Origin: a virus | Taxonomy: Duplodnaviria > Caudoviricetes | DNA length: 49,705 bases | Reading direction: 5' to 3' (one strand) | IMG/VR virus record: IMGVR_UViG_3300032225_000860 | Coordinates: 1 to 49,705 of that record | In this document: positions 5,225 through 13,950 of the stretch, in pieces | Layout of the letters: each line of letters begins with the position of its first letter | Numbering within the stretch: the first letter of the stretch is position 1 | Position numbers and translations under genes: made by a program | The notes under the pieces: model-generated | Databases searched by the model: none | What the model was told of the DNA's origin: nothing | What the model saw: only the letters and a program-made list of their open reading frames with translations

Positions 5225-7969
5225 TAGCTCACCCTTGGCCTATATGATGGTAATAGAGGCCATAAGCCAATTATCTGCGGAGGTGGCCGCGTCTAAGGTG
5301 GAAGATTACCCGCCGCGCGGTTTTGTAGAGCCTATGGCGTGGATTGAGACGGCGCAGAAAATCCAGCACATATTAAATAAGTGATAACTCTAAGCCTCTG
5401 GAGGGGGGCTTAGGGATTGTCATTTTTGGCGGTCATTAACTTAAGGGGAGCATATGAAGGTTATAGATAAGCATACCGGCAGAGAATTAAGCCATGCAGA
5501 GATTTTGGAGGAGGTTAATAGAGATCGCTCGGATGAGTGGAGCAATTACAACGGCCTAGATTTAAAAGAGACTCCAGCAGAGGTGCTGGAATGGATTGAT
5601 CCGCAATACTTTGACATTATTTTATAGGGGGATATATGCAATTTTATTTTAATAGTAAGCCAGTACCTAAAGGTCTGGCGCGTATCATTTTTATAGATGC
5701 AAACCCAACTATGGATCAGGCGGATGCAGAGGCGATTTTTAAGGGGGCGCAGACGTCCGGAGGTAGTAAGTTTAGGGCGCACCTACGCGATTATGGTTTG
5801 GAGGTGGTGCTATGAAGGAATTAAAAGAGATTATTTTGAATGTACTCGTGGCGGTGGCCAGCATGGCCGCGGTTTATTTTTTAATTGTTTTTGGTTTATC
5901 AATCTAGGGGGGCTTATGTTTTATGTATATCGCAATACTAAAGAGGATAGCGGAGTGATCGCTCAATTTGAGGATAAGGATCAGGCGCTGGAGATGATGG
6001 AGCGCTTGGCCACGCGTGAATTTCGCGAGAATGTTATCGGTTACGCGGTGCGTGATTATCAATTAAAAACATACGCGGAGATGGAGATATGAGAGATCTT
6101 ACCGATTTAGAAAAACTGCGGATGGTGAAGGATATCCTTGGCCGTATTGAATGTATTCGGCTGGATGTAGGGCTTAAATTAGAGGTGGCTGGGGATTTTG
6201 TAGATGAGGCAATTAATTTTATGGAGGAAGAGCATGAGAAAGAAAACCATTAATTCTCTAATGCCAATTGATAAGGCGGCAATTGGGTCTGATTTGAGGT
6301 CATTGATTGAATACTATACGGAGTTAACAGTAGAAGAGCATATGACCGGAAAGATCAATAAAGAGGCCGATCAGACTTGGAACAAAATACTAGTTTTGAT
6401 CCATAAATTAGTGGAGGAAAAAGATGCGTAACATAGTCCTATTTGGCAATATTGAATTTGGAGAATTTTTAAAGGATGGTGGCCGCGATCATTTTTCGTG
6501 TGCAATCGTCCATGAAATTCAATGCCAGCTGATGATGGAGGAAGAGGAGGCTGATGATTTTATGGTCAAGCATTCGTATGATGGCTATTTAATTCCAGCA
6601 TTATTTAAGGGTGAAGTTTATTTTTCGGGGAAAAATGATGGAAAAATGCTCAATTTGTAGTTGTAATTTTTCGCTGGACGAAGAGGGCGGTATCTCTGGT
6701 GAGTTTGGGGTTTTGCCTGTGGACTTTTGTCCTACTTGCTTTAGCTCAATGATGGATATGGCCGATAAGCTTGGCGGCGATGATATGACGTTAGAGTGGG
6801 GTAACAGTAGGGTGGCCACTAAGTATATGTATGAGCGCATCCATGACATTTTGGACGAGGTTGATGGTGATATATATAACAAGTTGTCCAAACTGCTTGA
6901 TGAGCTGGCGCATAATTATGAAGTTGATACTGGAGAGAAGATAGGAGAGAGTGATGAGTAAATTAAAAGAGTACGAAAAGATCGTAATGCTTACAGATGA
7001 GCTGGATGATGGCTCAATTGTGGTCAATTTTGACGTTACAGACGAATATAACTGCACAACTAGAACCGGTGGTTACGTTAAGGCAACGCAAGACAATGAC
7101 GATAAATGTTTTTATGTAACTATCTGTGATGAGCAAGGCAATCTCTTATCTGAGACAGTTGTGCCATTTGTTTTTATGAATCATGAGGATGACGAAGATG
7201 AAAGTTAAAAAAATTAACAGCAAAATGGTGGAGCATTGGATTGGCAGCGATCATCAAAACACCGCTGAATATCTTCGGCTATTGACAGAGATAATTAACG
7301 GCGAGTATACGGTTGATGAATTTAGGGACGATGTATTAGATTTATGGGGAGAAGATGATGAAAGTAATGATTGAGGTAAATATTCCGGTCAACGGCACAA
7401 AGGCCGAGGCTGAGATGGCTGTTAAGCGGTATTTTGATCCTGATTGGATGGCAGAGTGGTGGTGCGTTGATGATGTCATTGAGCAGGCTTGCGAAGACAT
7501 TAGTACAGAAGAGGCACGCTGGGTGCTGCAAATGATGGAAAAACGCCACGATTGTAACCATGGCCATACTTGGGATTCTATGGATCATTGGATTGATCAT
7601 GTTATTGGACAGAGGGGTAAAAAATGAAGCGCTTTAAACTTTACGATAGCAAAAAAGACTATTTAGGTGAATTTGATACTTTTGTAGAGGCTTGGCAAGA
7701 GGGTACGGATTACAAGGCCACTACCGGCAACACCTACTTTATTCAAGATACTGGCCGGCATTATGCACAAGTGATAGAAAAACTCAGAGGAGAAGAAAAT
7801 GCTAAGACAATATGATGTTACGTTCCACCTACGCCGCACAGTAACCATTACTGTAGACTGCCACAATGAAGATGACGCCGAGGATTTTGCTTATGATGAT
7901 CTAAAGCTACAGGAAGATGAGGAGGTTATTGAGGTTGAGGTAACCGCTGGCGATCCTAGCGGTGAATAG
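5196..7969 (+). CDS. Second early cluster of small, mostly acidic hypothetical proteins (5196-5384, 5454-5627, 5636-5815, 5812-5907 membrane peptide, 5916-6092, 6089-6253, 6234-6431, 6424-6660, ~6635-6961 Zn-finger-like, 6951-7208, ~7198-7374, 7355-7627, 7624-7815, 7799-7969)
   Basis: Continuous overlapping ORF chain with G-rich RBSs. Several ORFs under 60 aa were translated by hand. The tracked 5697-6092 ORF most likely starts at 5916. Confidence 0.7.
5379..5434 (+). promoter_or_regulatory. Repeated structured intergenic element, copy 3 (RNase III site-like)
   Basis: AAGTGA/TCATTT lower stem, CTAAGCCTCT/GGGGGCTTAG upper stem. Confidence 0.6.
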
Positions 7970-8780
7970 TATAATTGGGCATCAATACTTTTTTAAGGCT
8001 TTGGCTGGCGGTAAAGATGCCCACTCTCATATGATAATCGTTGAAATCCTCCCCAGTTGTTCCGCTGAGCCAGTACGGATGGCCTGTTTCAATCGCAACG
8101 GATTCACCGATATGACTGGGGTCATTGTCAGCAACAATGATCCCCTTCCCGACTGTCCGCGCTACTTCCTTGAGATTTCCTGCGCTGAAGCAGATGTAGA
8201 TACAATATCTCAGGTTGCTGCTTTTCATAGCGAGGCGAATGGAATTCCCCGTGGCAAACCCCTCGCAGAAGATGGGAATCCCTTTTGCGTCCATGGTAAA
8301 ACTTGCGCCCTTAGTCGTTTGTCCATACAGGAATTTTTTATCCCCTTGCTCATTGATGAGCTGGCATCCAATCAGTCTTTCTCCGATCCGCATCGGTATA
8401 ACTAACTTACGTTCTCCGTTGTCGTTCCATACCGGCCACTTCTCTTCCGGAAAACCTTTTCTCTCCATATACGGATGGGTTTCCATTTGTGTCTGGTGCA
8501 TAATCCAGCCGGCTTTGGCAGCTGCTTTGTCCGCCAGCTCTTTGCGCTGATTGTTACTTTCTTTTATGCGCGTTATATGAATCGGATTAGGGCTTTCTGA
8601 TTTCCAAACGGCCGGTTTCTCCATGGTTGCCCAGTTTTGTACCGCGCCCCTATTCCCGTCAAAAATATATGAACCGTTTTTCTTATGTGGATGATCGGTT
8701 GTTGGGACTCTAACCCATTTATCGTACATCAGCGAATTGATAATCAGGCCATGAGCTTTAGCAAAATCTTGGAAGTGCAT
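7956..8780 (-). CDS. Toprim-domain primase-like protein
   Basis: HPYMERKG, LVIPM...CQLI...GDKKFL, CEGFATG, IIVADND, DFND motifs. Start at ATG 8780 follows AAGGA. Confidence 0.88.
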   Translation of the reverse strand: MHFQDFAKAHGLIINSLMYDKWVRVPTTDHPHKKNGSYIFDGNRGAVQNWATMEKPAVWKSESPNPIHITRIKESNNQRKELADKAAAKAGWIMHQTQMETHPYMERKGFPEEKWPVWNDNGERKLVIPMRIGERLIGCQLINEQGDKKFLYGQTTKGASFTMDAKGIPIFCEGFATGNSIRLAMKSSNLRYCIYICFSAGNLKEVARTVGKGIIVADNDPSHIGESVAIETGHPYWLSGTTGEDFNDYHMRVGIFTASQSLKKVLMPNYTIHR

Positions 8781-8781
8781 A

Positions 8782-8946
8782 CTAATCCTTGAAAAACAAT
8801 TTAATGTCAATGTTACGGCGCTCTAGCTCTCTCTTAATCTTTTTTATGGCTTGCTTTTCAATTTGATTGACTGTAACCCTATGCATTCCCAGCTTTAGGG
8901 CTACTTCTTGCTGTGTCATGTTGATCAGGCTTTTATCAATTTGCAT
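8782..8946 (-). CDS. Stand-alone sigma70 region-4-like HTH protein (54 aa; not in the ORF track)
   Basis: MTQQEVALKLGMHRVTVNQIEKQAIKKIK resembles the sigma region 4.2 consensus. Confidence 0.7.
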   Translation of the reverse strand: MQIDKSLINMTQQEVALKLGMHRVTVNQIEKQAIKKIKRELERRNIDIKLFFKD

Positions 8947-9440: not shown

Positions 9441-9595
9441 TTTCTACATTTCTTTTGCACGTTAATTGGGTCTGCGGTACTTACTTCGCTGCATTGATAG
9501 ACTATCGGCCTTAATGCGTGCTGCACGGCCATATCTACGCCATTAAAGAAAGCAATCATAAATAAAGTAAAGAATACAAATTTAAAAAATATCAT
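9401..9595 (-). CDS. Small membrane-anchored hypothetical protein
   Basis: Hydrophobic N-terminus and two Cys. Overlaps both neighbours. Confidence 0.55.
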   Translation of the reverse strand: MIFFKFVFFTLFMIAFFNGVDMAVQHALRPIVYQCSEVSTADPINVQKKCRKWIAQKKTTAEGS

Positions 9596-11076
9596 GCTGC
9601 CAACTTCTCTTTCCTATTAGACCATGCAATATTGCGAGACTTTATCCAGCCCATGGTAGACAGTGATGGTGGACGAGTCTTATCTTCTAACCCTCTTGGC
9701 CAGACTTTAAACTTTTCTTTGTATTTGTGGCTAGCCCAGTATTCGTTATAGCCACGTTCTTTGGCCACATACAGTAACTCAGAGTAAAATAGTTGCTTGT
9801 CATCCTTCTTAACCTTCACTGTTTCTATGGCTAACTCTTCCATGGTGCCGGCGACTGCAGCAATCTCGTTACGCCTCTGGCGAATATGACCACAAGACGG
9901 GCAGCAATCAGTGTTCTTTGGTAATAAGAAAGAGCACGCTGGGCATTTAGATTCTTTCTTTAGCCGCTCGGTAGGCTCTTTTTTGGCCTTCTCTCCATCG
10001 TTGTCTAATACTTGTACGCCGTTTTGAAACACCTCTTCCCAGTCATCTCTGAACCGCAAGAAATTACCAGAATGATCTAGCCACAGAGCAAAATACTTAC
10101 TAGGATGGGGGCGCATGACTCTCCCCAGCTGCTGGATGTGGGAAGAAAGTGACTTGGAAAAAGGTCTAGCGGAAACTCCAATGGCGACATCAGGAACATC
10201 AAAACCCCTAGTAAGAATATCGGTAGCAATAAGGCCATGTATCTGTGTATCCGGCCGCGAAAAATCTGCAATAGCTTGTCGTTTATATTCACTATCGTCC
10301 TTATAAGAAATTGATACAAAATTGTATCCGTGCTCGGCAAACTGTTTTACTAAGTCTGCGCCGTGAGCTACGCCTGCACAAAACACAATCGTCTTCTTAG
10401 GCATACCAAAAACTTCGTGGGTCTTCTTAATCCACTCTTGAACTATATCGCCGGTTAACTTCATACCGCGCTCTGTTACCGCGTCTTGTGACCACTCGCC
10501 AGCAACCTTCTTAACGCCAGTCATGTCAATCTCTTTGGCAATAAATACTTTAAGAGGTGTTAACCACTTATCGTTTACCAGCGACTCTGTTGTTGATCCA
10601 CAGACTACGTTGGTATAAAGACTGGCCAGACCCTTGGTAAAGGGTGTCGCGGTCAATCCAATTACTTTAATGTGTGGATTATTTCTAATAAACTCTGAGG
10701 TCTGCTTGCGTGCTATGTGGCATTCATCCACAATCAATAGATCCATCTGCGGGAAGTCTTTCATCTTCTCCAAAGTCTGCGCAGAGCAAACTTGCAGCCG
10801 GTGCGTTCTATTGTGCTTGTAGTGCTTGGCCTGCAACACTCCGTGCGGAATGTTGTACTTATCTAATCTGTCGCTAGTCTGGTCAACCAAGATAATACGG
10901 TCTAAAACCATGGCCGCTTTTTTGTACTTCTCATTGGTTGCCTTCATCAAGGCAATGGCTACTTCAGTCTTGCCAAATCCTGTCGGTGCGTATAGTAACT
11001 GTGATCTGTGTCCATCCCTAAATCCCTCTCTCAACTTCTCAATAACGTGCTGCTGGTGTTCGCGCAAAACTAACAT
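9592..11076 (-). CDS. Superfamily 2 DNA helicase (RadD/UvsW-like) with C-terminal zinc finger
   Basis: APTGFGKT, DECH, GLTATP, GFDVPD, QQLGRVMR and CPAC...CPSC motifs. Confidence 0.95.
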   Translation of the reverse strand: MLVLREHQQHVIEKLREGFRDGHRSQLLYAPTGFGKTEVAIALMKATNEKYKKAAMVLDRIILVDQTSDRLDKYNIPHGVLQAKHYKHNRTHRLQVCSAQTLEKMKDFPQMDLLIVDECHIARKQTSEFIRNNPHIKVIGLTATPFTKGLASLYTNVVCGSTTESLVNDKWLTPLKVFIAKEIDMTGVKKVAGEWSQDAVTERGMKLTGDIVQEWIKKTHEVFGMPKKTIVFCAGVAHGADLVKQFAEHGYNFVSISYKDDSEYKRQAIADFSRPDTQIHGLIATDILTRGFDVPDVAIGVSARPFSKSLSSHIQQLGRVMRPHPSKYFALWLDHSGNFLRFRDDWEEVFQNGVQVLDNDGEKAKKEPTERLKKESKCPACSFLLPKNTDCCPSCGHIRQRRNEIAAVAGTMEELAIETVKVKKDDKQLFYSELLYVAKERGYNEYWASHKYKEKFKVWPRGLEDKTRPPSLSTMGWIKSRNIAWSNRKEKLAA

Positions 11077-11114: not shown

Positions 11115-11396
11115 TCAAAGTTTTTTTAACTTTTTAGCAAATGAATTTAATGATGCAGTCAATTCGGCATTGCGGTTCTGAAACATATCCCGACTATACC
11201 GCAACGATTTGTTATCAATCTTTAAAAGTTCGTTCTCTTTTCGTAATGCTTTTAATTCCTCCTGTATCCAATCTCTTTCTATATCGCTAGCATCCCAAAG
11301 CTGCGCTGCAATGATCTCCATCAGACCTTTATTTTCCTCGGAAAGCTGATTTATTACATCAGTAAGTTCCCTAATGCGGTCGTTTTCATCAATCAT
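11115..11396 (-). CDS. Coiled-coil hypothetical protein, first gene of the helicase/primase operon
   Basis: Heptad-rich ORF with AGGA RBS. Confidence 0.7.
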   Translation of the reverse strand: MIDENDRIRELTDVINQLSEENKGLMEIIAAQLWDASDIERDWIQEELKALRKENELLKIDNKSLRYSRDMFQNRNAELTASLNSFAKKLKKL

Positions 11397-13087: not shown

Positions 13088-13142
13088 ATCTGCCCTTTCA
13101 TTAATTGTTGCAGTGCAATAATTCTATCACAAAATTTTAGAT

Positions 13143-13446
13143 ATAGTTCCCCCAAGGGTGACAGCCCCCACATCTGGAATGCTGTTACCTGACCCAGTGT
13201 ATACAGTGTGTATACGCCCAGTCCTACCGGAGTTAATGGTCATTCGTTGGAAGACTTGTCTCACCCATGTATCTTCCCACTTGTGTAGTCGCCATTTAAC
13301 GCTACGAGGCACGCAATCAGGTGTAAACCGGCCTATGTATTATCCACGCAGCCCATGTAGGCTCTTAGTGACGTCTGGAGTACGGCTGTTGGATGTATAG
13401 GGCAAACAAATTAATTGTTACCGTTTCCCAAATTTAAATCCTAGCA
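13143..13446 (-). ncRNA. Candidate large structured non-coding RNA (unassigned)
   Basis: Many nested helices with G-U pairs favouring the minus strand, a possible pseudoknot, an upstream TTGCAC-N17-TATCCT promoter (13480-13452), and no convincing ORF. Confidence 0.55.
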
Positions 13447-13483
13447 AAATCAGGATACACCAAAATAAAAAAAGGTGCAACAG

Positions 13484-13522
13484 AAAAGAGAGAACCCTCA
13501 GAGGGTGAGCTCTGAGGGTTCT
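13484..13522 (-). terminator. Rho-independent terminator
   Basis: Perfect 13-bp stem AGAACCCTCAGAG/CTCTGAGGGTTCT followed by CTCTTTTC on the minus strand. Confidence 0.8.
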
Positions 13523-13613
13523 GGGCGCGGGGAGCGCTGAGGAGGAGGTGAAACCTACCTTGATAATCTGCTAGGATTTACGCAAGGGAATAAAGCTAAG
13601 GCGGGGCTTAACT
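13484..13613 (-). ncRNA. Candidate ~130-nt small RNA
   Basis: Bounded by a near-consensus promoter and a 13-bp intrinsic terminator. No ORF. C-rich anti-SD-like segment. Confidence 0.65.
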
Positions 13614-13619
13614 GTTCGC

Positions 13620-13649
13620 AGTATACCACAATGTGAAAATTGATGTCAA
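13620..13649 (-). promoter_or_regulatory. Strong sigma70-type promoter with an operator-like site in the spacer
   Basis: TTGACA-N18-TATACT with TGn extension. TTTTCACATTGTGGTAT overlaps the spacer and -10. Confidence 0.75.
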
Positions 13650-13653
13650 TAGC

Positions 13654-13950
13654 CTATTTATGTACGTCTAACCTACCGGTTTCAAATAGCCAGCCTATGG
13701 TTTTACGATGGGCTTCCTCCCAAAGATCTCTACGATCGTCTCTGGAGAGATTTTTTCCTTGGTCAAGCTCCATATGGCACTTATAACAAAGAGCTGCTAT
13801 ACGGTAATCATGGGCTTTAATAGACCGGCCTTTGCCGTCCCGTAGCTGATTAGAATGAGCCGCGACTATGGTTCCGTTTTCAATCTCGCAATGCTGGCAC
13901 GGGCTCTGGCGGACAATCTCTAGGAGTTTTTTATTCCGGTAGATCAACAA
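13654..13950 (-). CDS. DUF1364/YbcO-like His-Me finger protein
   Basis: CQHC...VAAHSN...GKGRSIKAHD...LCYKCH. Confidence 0.75.
   Translation of the reverse strand: MLIYRNKKLLEIVRQSPCQHCEIENGTIVAAHSNQLRDGKGRSIKAHDYRIAALCYKCHMELDQGKNLSRDDRRDLWEEAHRKTIGWLFETGRLDVHK

Follow-up and report, generated by a model that had tools for sequence, protein, structure and literature searches.

Does the gene-free stretch at 13143-13446 of this virus DNA encode a structured RNA, and what could such an RNA do there? The question was raised by an initial annotation of a linear virus record of 49.7 kb, whose completeness CheckV puts at 78%. The record is called the window here, that is, the whole stretch of 49,705 nt that was analysed. 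The window includes small early genes, a replication arm and structural genes, and its homologues come mostly from freshwater data. All the strings that the annotation quoted sit at the coordinates it gave. However, the dense helices that it stressed are at chance level on the single sequence (MFE z = 0.01 for 13143-13446 and -0.01 for 13145-13386 against shuffles). This z near 0, together with the ORFs of 61 and 80 codons that overlap the region, would speak for chance structure or for a conserved protein-coding gene.

To judge these possibilities, homologues were needed. Four close genomes were obtained via the neighbouring phosphoesterase gene (4 of 80 loci), and together with the window they share an almost invariant block (~13388-13150) between variable flanks. 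We name the conserved structured RNA of window 13384-13140 (minus strand) family A. Compensatory changes were visible in contig ends from public runs and were used to derive a search pattern; two early patterns, which were over-specific or matched by chance, were discarded. The first pattern found at least 120 stretches in IMG/VR (~160 estimated), and 117 of the 120 were family A members. An independent 3' pattern found at least 120 stretches as well, and its overlap with the first set was large. Positions built into the search patterns are invariant by construction.

Full-length copies were present in 315 of 652 loci (170 distinct sequences), always one copy per locus and never two. In GTDB genomes, there were three matches to the family A pattern, two of them real (L214 and L215); because both are short MAG contigs with phage-like neighbours, no host was assigned to the family. 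Among phages searched with blastn, MW202674 was the sole find for the RNA element, and a blastn search of plasmids (PLSDB) gave no credible match. In addition, one RNA-seq contig spans 13227-13388 only, which is a weak hint of transcription from contig-level data.

The fold of family A is given in Table 1. The 5' domain is a double pseudoknot (PK1 and PK2), and the 3' domain consists of P3-P8 with PK3 and PK4. PK3 pairs the P4 loop with the strand before P6, and PK4 pairs the P5 loop with the 3' UCACC.

Table 1. Positions of the RNA, its helices, its flanks and the neighbouring genes in the window
Feature	Position	Strand	Remarks
Family A structured RNA core	13140..13384	-	~245 nt, conserved across homologues
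P1, 3-bp hairpin	13372..13384	-	Loop UCCA 13379-13376 forms PK1 with UGGA 13346-13343; covariation
P2 hairpin	13350..13363	-	Loop AUG 13356-13354 forms PK2 with CAU 13337-13335 past an A-rich linker
P3/P3a hairpin	13307..13334	-	CACC(U/C) loop; covariation
P4 hairpin	13285..13305	-	Loop AAUGG 13296-13292 forms PK3 with CCAUU 13239-13235
P5 hairpin	13246..13280	-	Loop GGGUGA 13266-13261 forms PK4 with UCACCC 13161-13156
P6, 2-bp stem	13226..13233	-	UNCG-like loop; covariation
P7	13191..13223	-	Base GACU/GGUC or CAUU/AAUG conserved; tip length variable
P8, local hairpin	13158..13189	-	Able to sequester the 3' UCACC, alternative to PK4
3' tail	13090..13155	-	G-run, CUAU, A+T-rich stretch; candidate unwinding/priming zone
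Promoter-like site	13452..13480	-	Kept in 5/5 close genomes
Upstream leader	13481..13613	-	CCUCCUCCU and terminator-like hairpin 13522-13491
Strong sigma70-type promoter	13620..13649	-	11/12 matches, extended -10
YbcO/DUF968-like HNH-fold gene	13654..13950	-	Upstream slot marker in window layout; orthologue in L001
Coiled-coil remnant of ParB-like gene	11115..11396	-	93 aa (268-281 aa in other carriers)
Superfamily 2 helicase	9592..11076	-	Orthologue in L002
Toprim primase	7956..8810	-	

The structure was scored on 57 sequences with less than 93% identity. In the named structure, 92.5% of 3163 cells were paired and 33 of 56 pairs showed two-sided change, compared with 33-45% paired in slid controls; the covariation score was 0.47 for the named structure versus 0.05-0.08 when slid. 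For P2/PK2, for instance, alignment pair 36-54 was GC in 37 and CG in 20 of the 57 sequences. PK3 was found in many differing loop/partner combinations, all complementary. Furthermore, PK3 complementarity was 5.12 nt versus 3.42 nt for shuffled partners, and that of PK4 was 5.97 versus 5.26 nt, with 0 of 1000 shuffles as good in both cases (33 of the 36 top full-length rows, after two truncated rows and one duplicate were dropped; these statistics ignore kinship). Both pseudoknots are invariant in the pattern-selected set and covary in distant members reached via protein or leader anchors. Mutual information in 88 sequences ranked Watson-Crick pairs first and pointed to two lone tertiary pairs (13375-13368 and 13230-13219). 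Family A is a real, conserved fold with four pseudoknots on the minus strand.

Within the P8 region, four or five of the five nt of the 3' UCACC were paired locally in 60 of 88 members. The polarity of PK1 was inverted in L464:3582-3857, which has a longer 5' extension, and in L410:5124-5397. The two CACC(C/U) motifs covary as the same letter, which may reflect kinship. Two other contacts that we tried were unsupported: a kissing loop between P3a and P5, for which 522 of 1000 shuffles did as well, and a pairing of P3a with the 3' G-run (70 of 1000).

How much of the structure proposed from the single sequence is retained? The helices AGCCU/GGGCU (compensatory change in 4 pairs, 100% paired in 57 sequences), GUAG-CGU/UGGCG-A-CUAC (7 pairs, 100%) and GGAAGAU/GUCUUCC (8 pairs, 89%) are all borne out, and the proposed GGGUGA/UCACCC pseudoknot covaries between subfamilies. 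UCCA does pair with UGGA, as a pseudoknot from a 3-bp hairpin, but the ACG next to it does not pair within CGUGGA, its partner being the 5' CGU. GUAUACA/UGUAUAC is present in the window but is lineage-specific, being 9-11 nt shorter in three of four close relatives, and ACAGC/GCUGU is likewise a lineage-specific helix. The UGACC/GGUCA helix was wrong: 80 of 88 members lack GACC, the CAUU of this region is a pseudoknot strand, and the partner of GGUC is GACU 13223-13220. Helix P3, PK2, PK3 and the two single tertiary pairs had been missed. As for the proposed extent of 13143-13446, the core stands, but conservation begins sharply at 13384-13388 and 13446-13389 is a variable spacer.

The minus strand had been favoured by the annotation, and this agrees with the exchanges to G-U (alignment pair 30-37 was CG in 39 and UG in 18) and with the UNCG-like loops (UUCG 22, UUAG 22, UCAG 9 and UCCG 5 among 88 members). 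The same features bear on the idea that the fold acts as single-stranded DNA, either as a hairpin origin or as a loading site for a primosome or primase. Covariation cannot separate RNA from single-stranded DNA, a caveat that is also made for plasmid motifs in the main text of PMC5737381, and such DNA would fit the replication context equally. However, the UNCG-like loops, the G-U exchanges and the promoters at the 5' end are RNA signatures, and we consider a DNA function very unlikely.

Rfam 15 gave nothing on the core, either at the gathering threshold or at E up to 10. ARAGORN and Rfam found no tRNA or tmRNA on the RNA region, and group I/II introns and catalogued ribozymes had no Rfam match there; gene maps of 102 loci place the RNA between genes. 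A conserved reading frame is also absent: among 88 members, three have a frame without stops across the core on one strand and one has such a frame on the other, and the core lengths are spread over the three phases (38/19/31). The rarely open frame, these lengths and a covariation far above the controls refute coding and chance structure, to which we assign practically no probability. No description of family A was found in the literature searched, which covered PMC5737381 in its main text and the supplement of PMC10690425 in part. The part of the PMC10690425 supplementary files that was covered gave no match, and fragments of family A may be among the 29-151-nt candidates of that study. Judged from sequence comparison, family A is a new ncRNA family, and the claim of an undescribed structured RNA holds through its covariation, the lack of an Rfam match and the lack of a conserved frame.

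The surroundings of the RNA are also informative. The promoter of the initial annotation is the promoter-like site of Table 1; it is kept in the close genomes as TTGCAC-N17-TAT(C/T)CT but was not called by a consensus scan, and the promoter at 13649-13620 is stronger. Across members, a -10 element lies within 14 nt of the RNA in 8 of 82 and at 130-160 nt in 26, and a terminator-like leader is present in 11 of 82. The leader of the window weakly matches Rfam ar14 (23.7 bits, E 0.036, threshold 58.8); the conserved leader could be an anti-Shine-Dalgarno sRNA or a regulatory leader of the slot. Behind the core, A+T is ~72-73% in 40 nt versus ~63% upstream. A terminator within 100 nt downstream was found in 0 of 88 members, and the shuffled control was also 0 of 88, so this test is weak.

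A 45-aa ORF (window 13087-12950, minus) lies directly behind the RNA; it is conserved, also in relatives without the RNA at this place, and its orthologue has no Pfam or PHROG match. This gene ends in a ~10-nt direct repeat followed by an inverted repeat and a T-run (window 12950-12920, minus).

In the gene maps of 102 carriers, there are two main layouts. The first is cro - leader - RNA - small genes - short initiator, and the second, to which the window belongs, is YbcO-like - leader - RNA - ParB-like - SF2 helicase - primase. In the window, the 45-aa ORF and two genes on the opposite strand are inserted into the latter layout, and these two genes separate the RNA from the helicase. The linkage with replication genes that the annotation had suspected was seen in 65 of the 73 carriers with at least 2.5 kb downstream, which have such a gene within 4 kb on the same strand: an initiator fragment in 48, and ParB, helicase or primase in 17. 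The other eight have no recognised replication gene within 4 kb, two of them having terminase-like genes instead, and some distant members lie ahead of terminase or sugar-epimerase genes.

Of 62 short initiators, 59 have 106-143 aa. The match to the PHROG 270 profile (383 positions) is confined to positions ~179-287, the C-terminal domain. In a Pseudomonas phage, the same C-terminal domain stands behind an HTH_36 domain in a 279-aa protein. Longer homologues of the fragment were absent at E 1e-10, which is weak evidence, and its predicted structure (pLDDT 89) had no clear fold match (none in Foldseek, best Z 5.7). Furthermore, 32 carrier records, 22 of them at least 90% complete, contained no DUF1376, no HTH_36 over the cut-off, no Pol A and no tyrosine integrase, and the positive controls were detected. 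In the complete GenBank phage MW202674, which carries the RNA, the only trace of an initiator in the 56 annotated features is a fragment of 124 aa; MW202520 has cro and a 244-aa DUF1376 protein and lacks the RNA. In the short initiator at L256:5554-5928, the last 45 residues are modelled as a small helical domain (Z ~4 to SAP/LEM/Rho-N folds, not significant), a candidate RNA-binding part.

Is the slot ever empty, and what replaces the RNA? Three tests were made. When loci were picked by the short initiator, 65 of 80 reached back to cro, and exactly one of four non-coding elements was present in all 65 (A 26, B 25, C 8, D 6), none being empty or double. Element C is the Rfam motif RF02932 (Betaproteobacteria-1). 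It also replaces A in the window-type layout: 80 ParB-anchored loci gave 18 C, 16 A and 46 without a match to A-D, often with ParB away from the slot; L443 and L464 among these 46 later turned out to be distant A members. When metagenome loci were picked by cro alone, 54 of 80 spanned the module. A protein of 236-271 aa, which we regard as the full-length initiator, occurred in 23 loci, all without A or C; 22 of the 23 proteins form one cluster, and DUF1376 was found in four of four tested (DUF1376 counts as initiator by the PHROG annotation of one protein and by position). A or C occurred in 26 loci, none with a full-length initiator (22 with the fragment only, 4 with neither), and five loci had another non-coding stretch and no initiator. 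Thus, 0 of the 54 had both an RNA and a full-length initiator.

In the third test, 75 loci were picked by the leader motif. Among them, 33 match family A models (some in the 5' domain only), 8 match C, and the remaining 34 carry different non-coding stretches, which form five clusters. None of the 31 downstream protein clusters scanned is annotated as an initiator; primase-helicase and ParB/helicase genes are commonest downstream, and terminase and metabolic genes are also present.

These counts have to be read along the phylogeny. In a quick Cro tree (76 columns), the protein group is one clade with one change and 8 distinct rows, and the RNA types interleave with 25 label changes; identical Cro proteins accompany different elements in five sets. 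Because the protein group is a single clade, the contrast of RNA and protein counts as one event. The tree thus suggests that exchange among the RNAs was repeated and that the RNA-protein exchange was one event, not 23.

The slot counts bear on a further explanation, namely that family A is a stand-alone RNA gene (a ribozyme, a protein-binding scaffold or an anti-host RNA) that moves as a cassette and uses the slot only for its early promoter. Dense tertiary covariation as in ribozymes, a modular 5' domain joined to other 3' domains, and the Rfam entry for RF02932, which is interchangeable with A and listed there as an sRNA of unknown function, would agree with this. However, an accessory gene should sometimes be missing or co-occur with another, and empty or double slots were 0 of 65 and 0 of 54 loci. 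In addition, no terminator was found to mark the 3' end, and no conserved partner nuclease or reverse transcriptase adjoins the RNA. We consider a stand-alone gene unlikely.

By analogy with known systems, we think that family A, in the initiator slot of freshwater phages, is probably an RNA-based origin with ColE1-like opening or priming by an R-loop of its transcript. On the sequences compared, it appears to behave as an origin module: in the tested slot it is never missing and never present twice, a protein initiator can stand in its place, no terminator was found behind it, and an A+T-rich flank follows. The comparative context thereby favours the replication origin or primer among the functions listed by the initial annotation, and the ribozyme, the RNP scaffold and folded single-stranded DNA are less likely. 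The transcript would fold during its synthesis. Its 3' part would remain hybridised to the template in an R-loop, and this open bubble would prime synthesis or load a helicase. Host RNase H and Pol I may carry out the priming; helicase loading would fall to the truncated initiator in the 35-kb phages and to the ParB-like/SF2 helicase/primase set in the window-type phages. Speculatively, the choice of the 3' UCACC between the P5 loop and the local P8 might act during transcription as the switch by which the RNA becomes committed to hybrid formation.

In ColE1, a folded transcript forms a persistent hybrid, RNase H trims it, Pol I extends it, and the displaced strand serves for helicase loading (PMC5043065). 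Like RNA II, family A would be a promoter-driven structured transcript without terminator in an initiator-free replicon, and the R-loop and the host Pol I and RNase H are what we propose for it. In keeping with this, 0 of 26 RNA loci had a full-length initiator, though the C-terminal fragment remains in many. Unlike RNA II, however, family A is 245 nt rather than ~550, has four pseudoknots, has no clear RNA I, belongs to tailed phages and is accompanied by the initiator fragment or by a helicase and primase. The family A model had no match in ColE1 (NC_001371), and sequence comparison indicates that family A is not a ColE1 member. The 3' end resembles the ColE1 origin in having CCTATG and an A-run, but this likeness was dropped after a profile scan did not put the origin in its top five. 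An antisense promoter-like pattern across P3 was seen in 30 of 88 members, not in the window and without a chance control; an antisense RNA resembling RNA I could start from it.

PMC3035462 describes priming by a structured transcript for the origins of two plasmid families. The MRB plasmids of Vibrionaceae have an RNA-dependent origin unrelated in sequence to ColE1, of convergent origin (PMC3035462; PMC6380287). Unlike family A, which had no match in PLSDB, they are plasmids with an antisense RNA I. The orphan structured motifs ARRPOF, GEBRO and PAGEV (223-349 nt) resemble family A in being tied to replication regions but are plasmid-borne (PMC5737381); family A matches no Rfam model.

There are several arguments against an origin. 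Cassette exchange between conserved flanks gives mutual exclusion whatever the function, and the RNA-versus-protein contrast is one clade. The GC skew tracks the coding strand and gives no origin signal, and homology to ColE1 is absent. The eight carriers without a nearby replication gene and the members before terminase or sugar-epimerase genes also count against it. Finally, the window itself encodes a primase and a helicase, and between the RNA and the helicase lie two genes on the opposite strand. On the first of these last two points, phage T4, with its own primase and helicase, opens oriF and oriG by R-loops (PMC3016281), and this precedent fits the window layout. The T4 origins share with family A a promoter and an A+T-rich downstream zone; however, their R-loops are described there as needing no specific sequence, whereas the fold and sequence of family A are strongly conserved.

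The members before terminase or other operons would fit better with a cis-acting antiterminator or leader, which would modify RNA polymerase for read-through of the early replication operon. The model is the put element of phage HK022, a promoter-proximal phage RNA that acts in cis at the head of an early operon. Family A is likewise always on the sense strand at an operon head, close behind a promoter or a terminator-like leader, and no terminator was found behind it. However, put is a much smaller two-hairpin element, far below 245 nt with four pseudoknots, and its phages keep the protein initiator; an antiterminator leaves the absence of the full-length initiator and the C-terminal-only remnant unexplained. 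Furthermore, the RNA lies after, not before, the terminator-like hairpin of the leader. An antiterminator is therefore rather improbable.

Starting again from an RNA-based origin, a more far-reaching idea, which we find possible but doubtful, is that an RNA has replaced the half of a lambdoid-type initiator that recognises the origin. The knotted RNA would designate the origin and open it, and the remaining C-terminal domain of 125 aa, or a helicase, would dock on this RNA; at least five unrelated RNA folds, including Betaproteobacteria-1, would be interchangeable in this role. If this takeover is true, it would define a class of RNA-initiated phage replicons that was not found in the literature searched. 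In a widespread freshwater phage group, a protein initiator appears to be exchanged for one or another of several elaborate RNAs. If the origin function holds, family A would be a variant of RNA-primed replication in tailed phages; if it fails, family A is still a well-founded new ncRNA whose slot appears to be obligatory. The orphan Rfam motif Betaproteobacteria-1 gains a testable function, and several more uncatalogued elements are exposed at a predictable position. In addition, the compact four-pseudoknot fold is suited to structure work and could possibly provide small new vector origins.

Betaproteobacteria-1 shares with family A the slot in both layouts, mutual exclusion with A and a chain of hairpins, but there is no cross-match either way between the models and members of the two. 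Its matches here (L334, L384, L387, L404, L011, L013 and L018), all in the initiator slot, are conserved for ~70 nt 3' beyond the 120-nt Rfam model. Families B and D have no Rfam match. Family B is a ~270-nt non-coding element with 20 distinct sequences, interchangeable with A (for example, after cro in L331, L336, L338, L385 and L406), and family D is a ~185-nt element with 5 distinct sequences in the same slot (after cro in L333 and L394). Unclassified non-coding stretches occupy the same slot in L575-L580 and in L460, L469, L497, L505 and L496, and the types at L573-L583 have no initiator fragment at all. Meanwhile, family E (L495, L499, L504, L518, L522, L523, L537, L556 and L559) combines the 5' double pseudoknot of A with another 3' domain that ends in long G-runs, and it lies mostly upstream of a primase-helicase gene.
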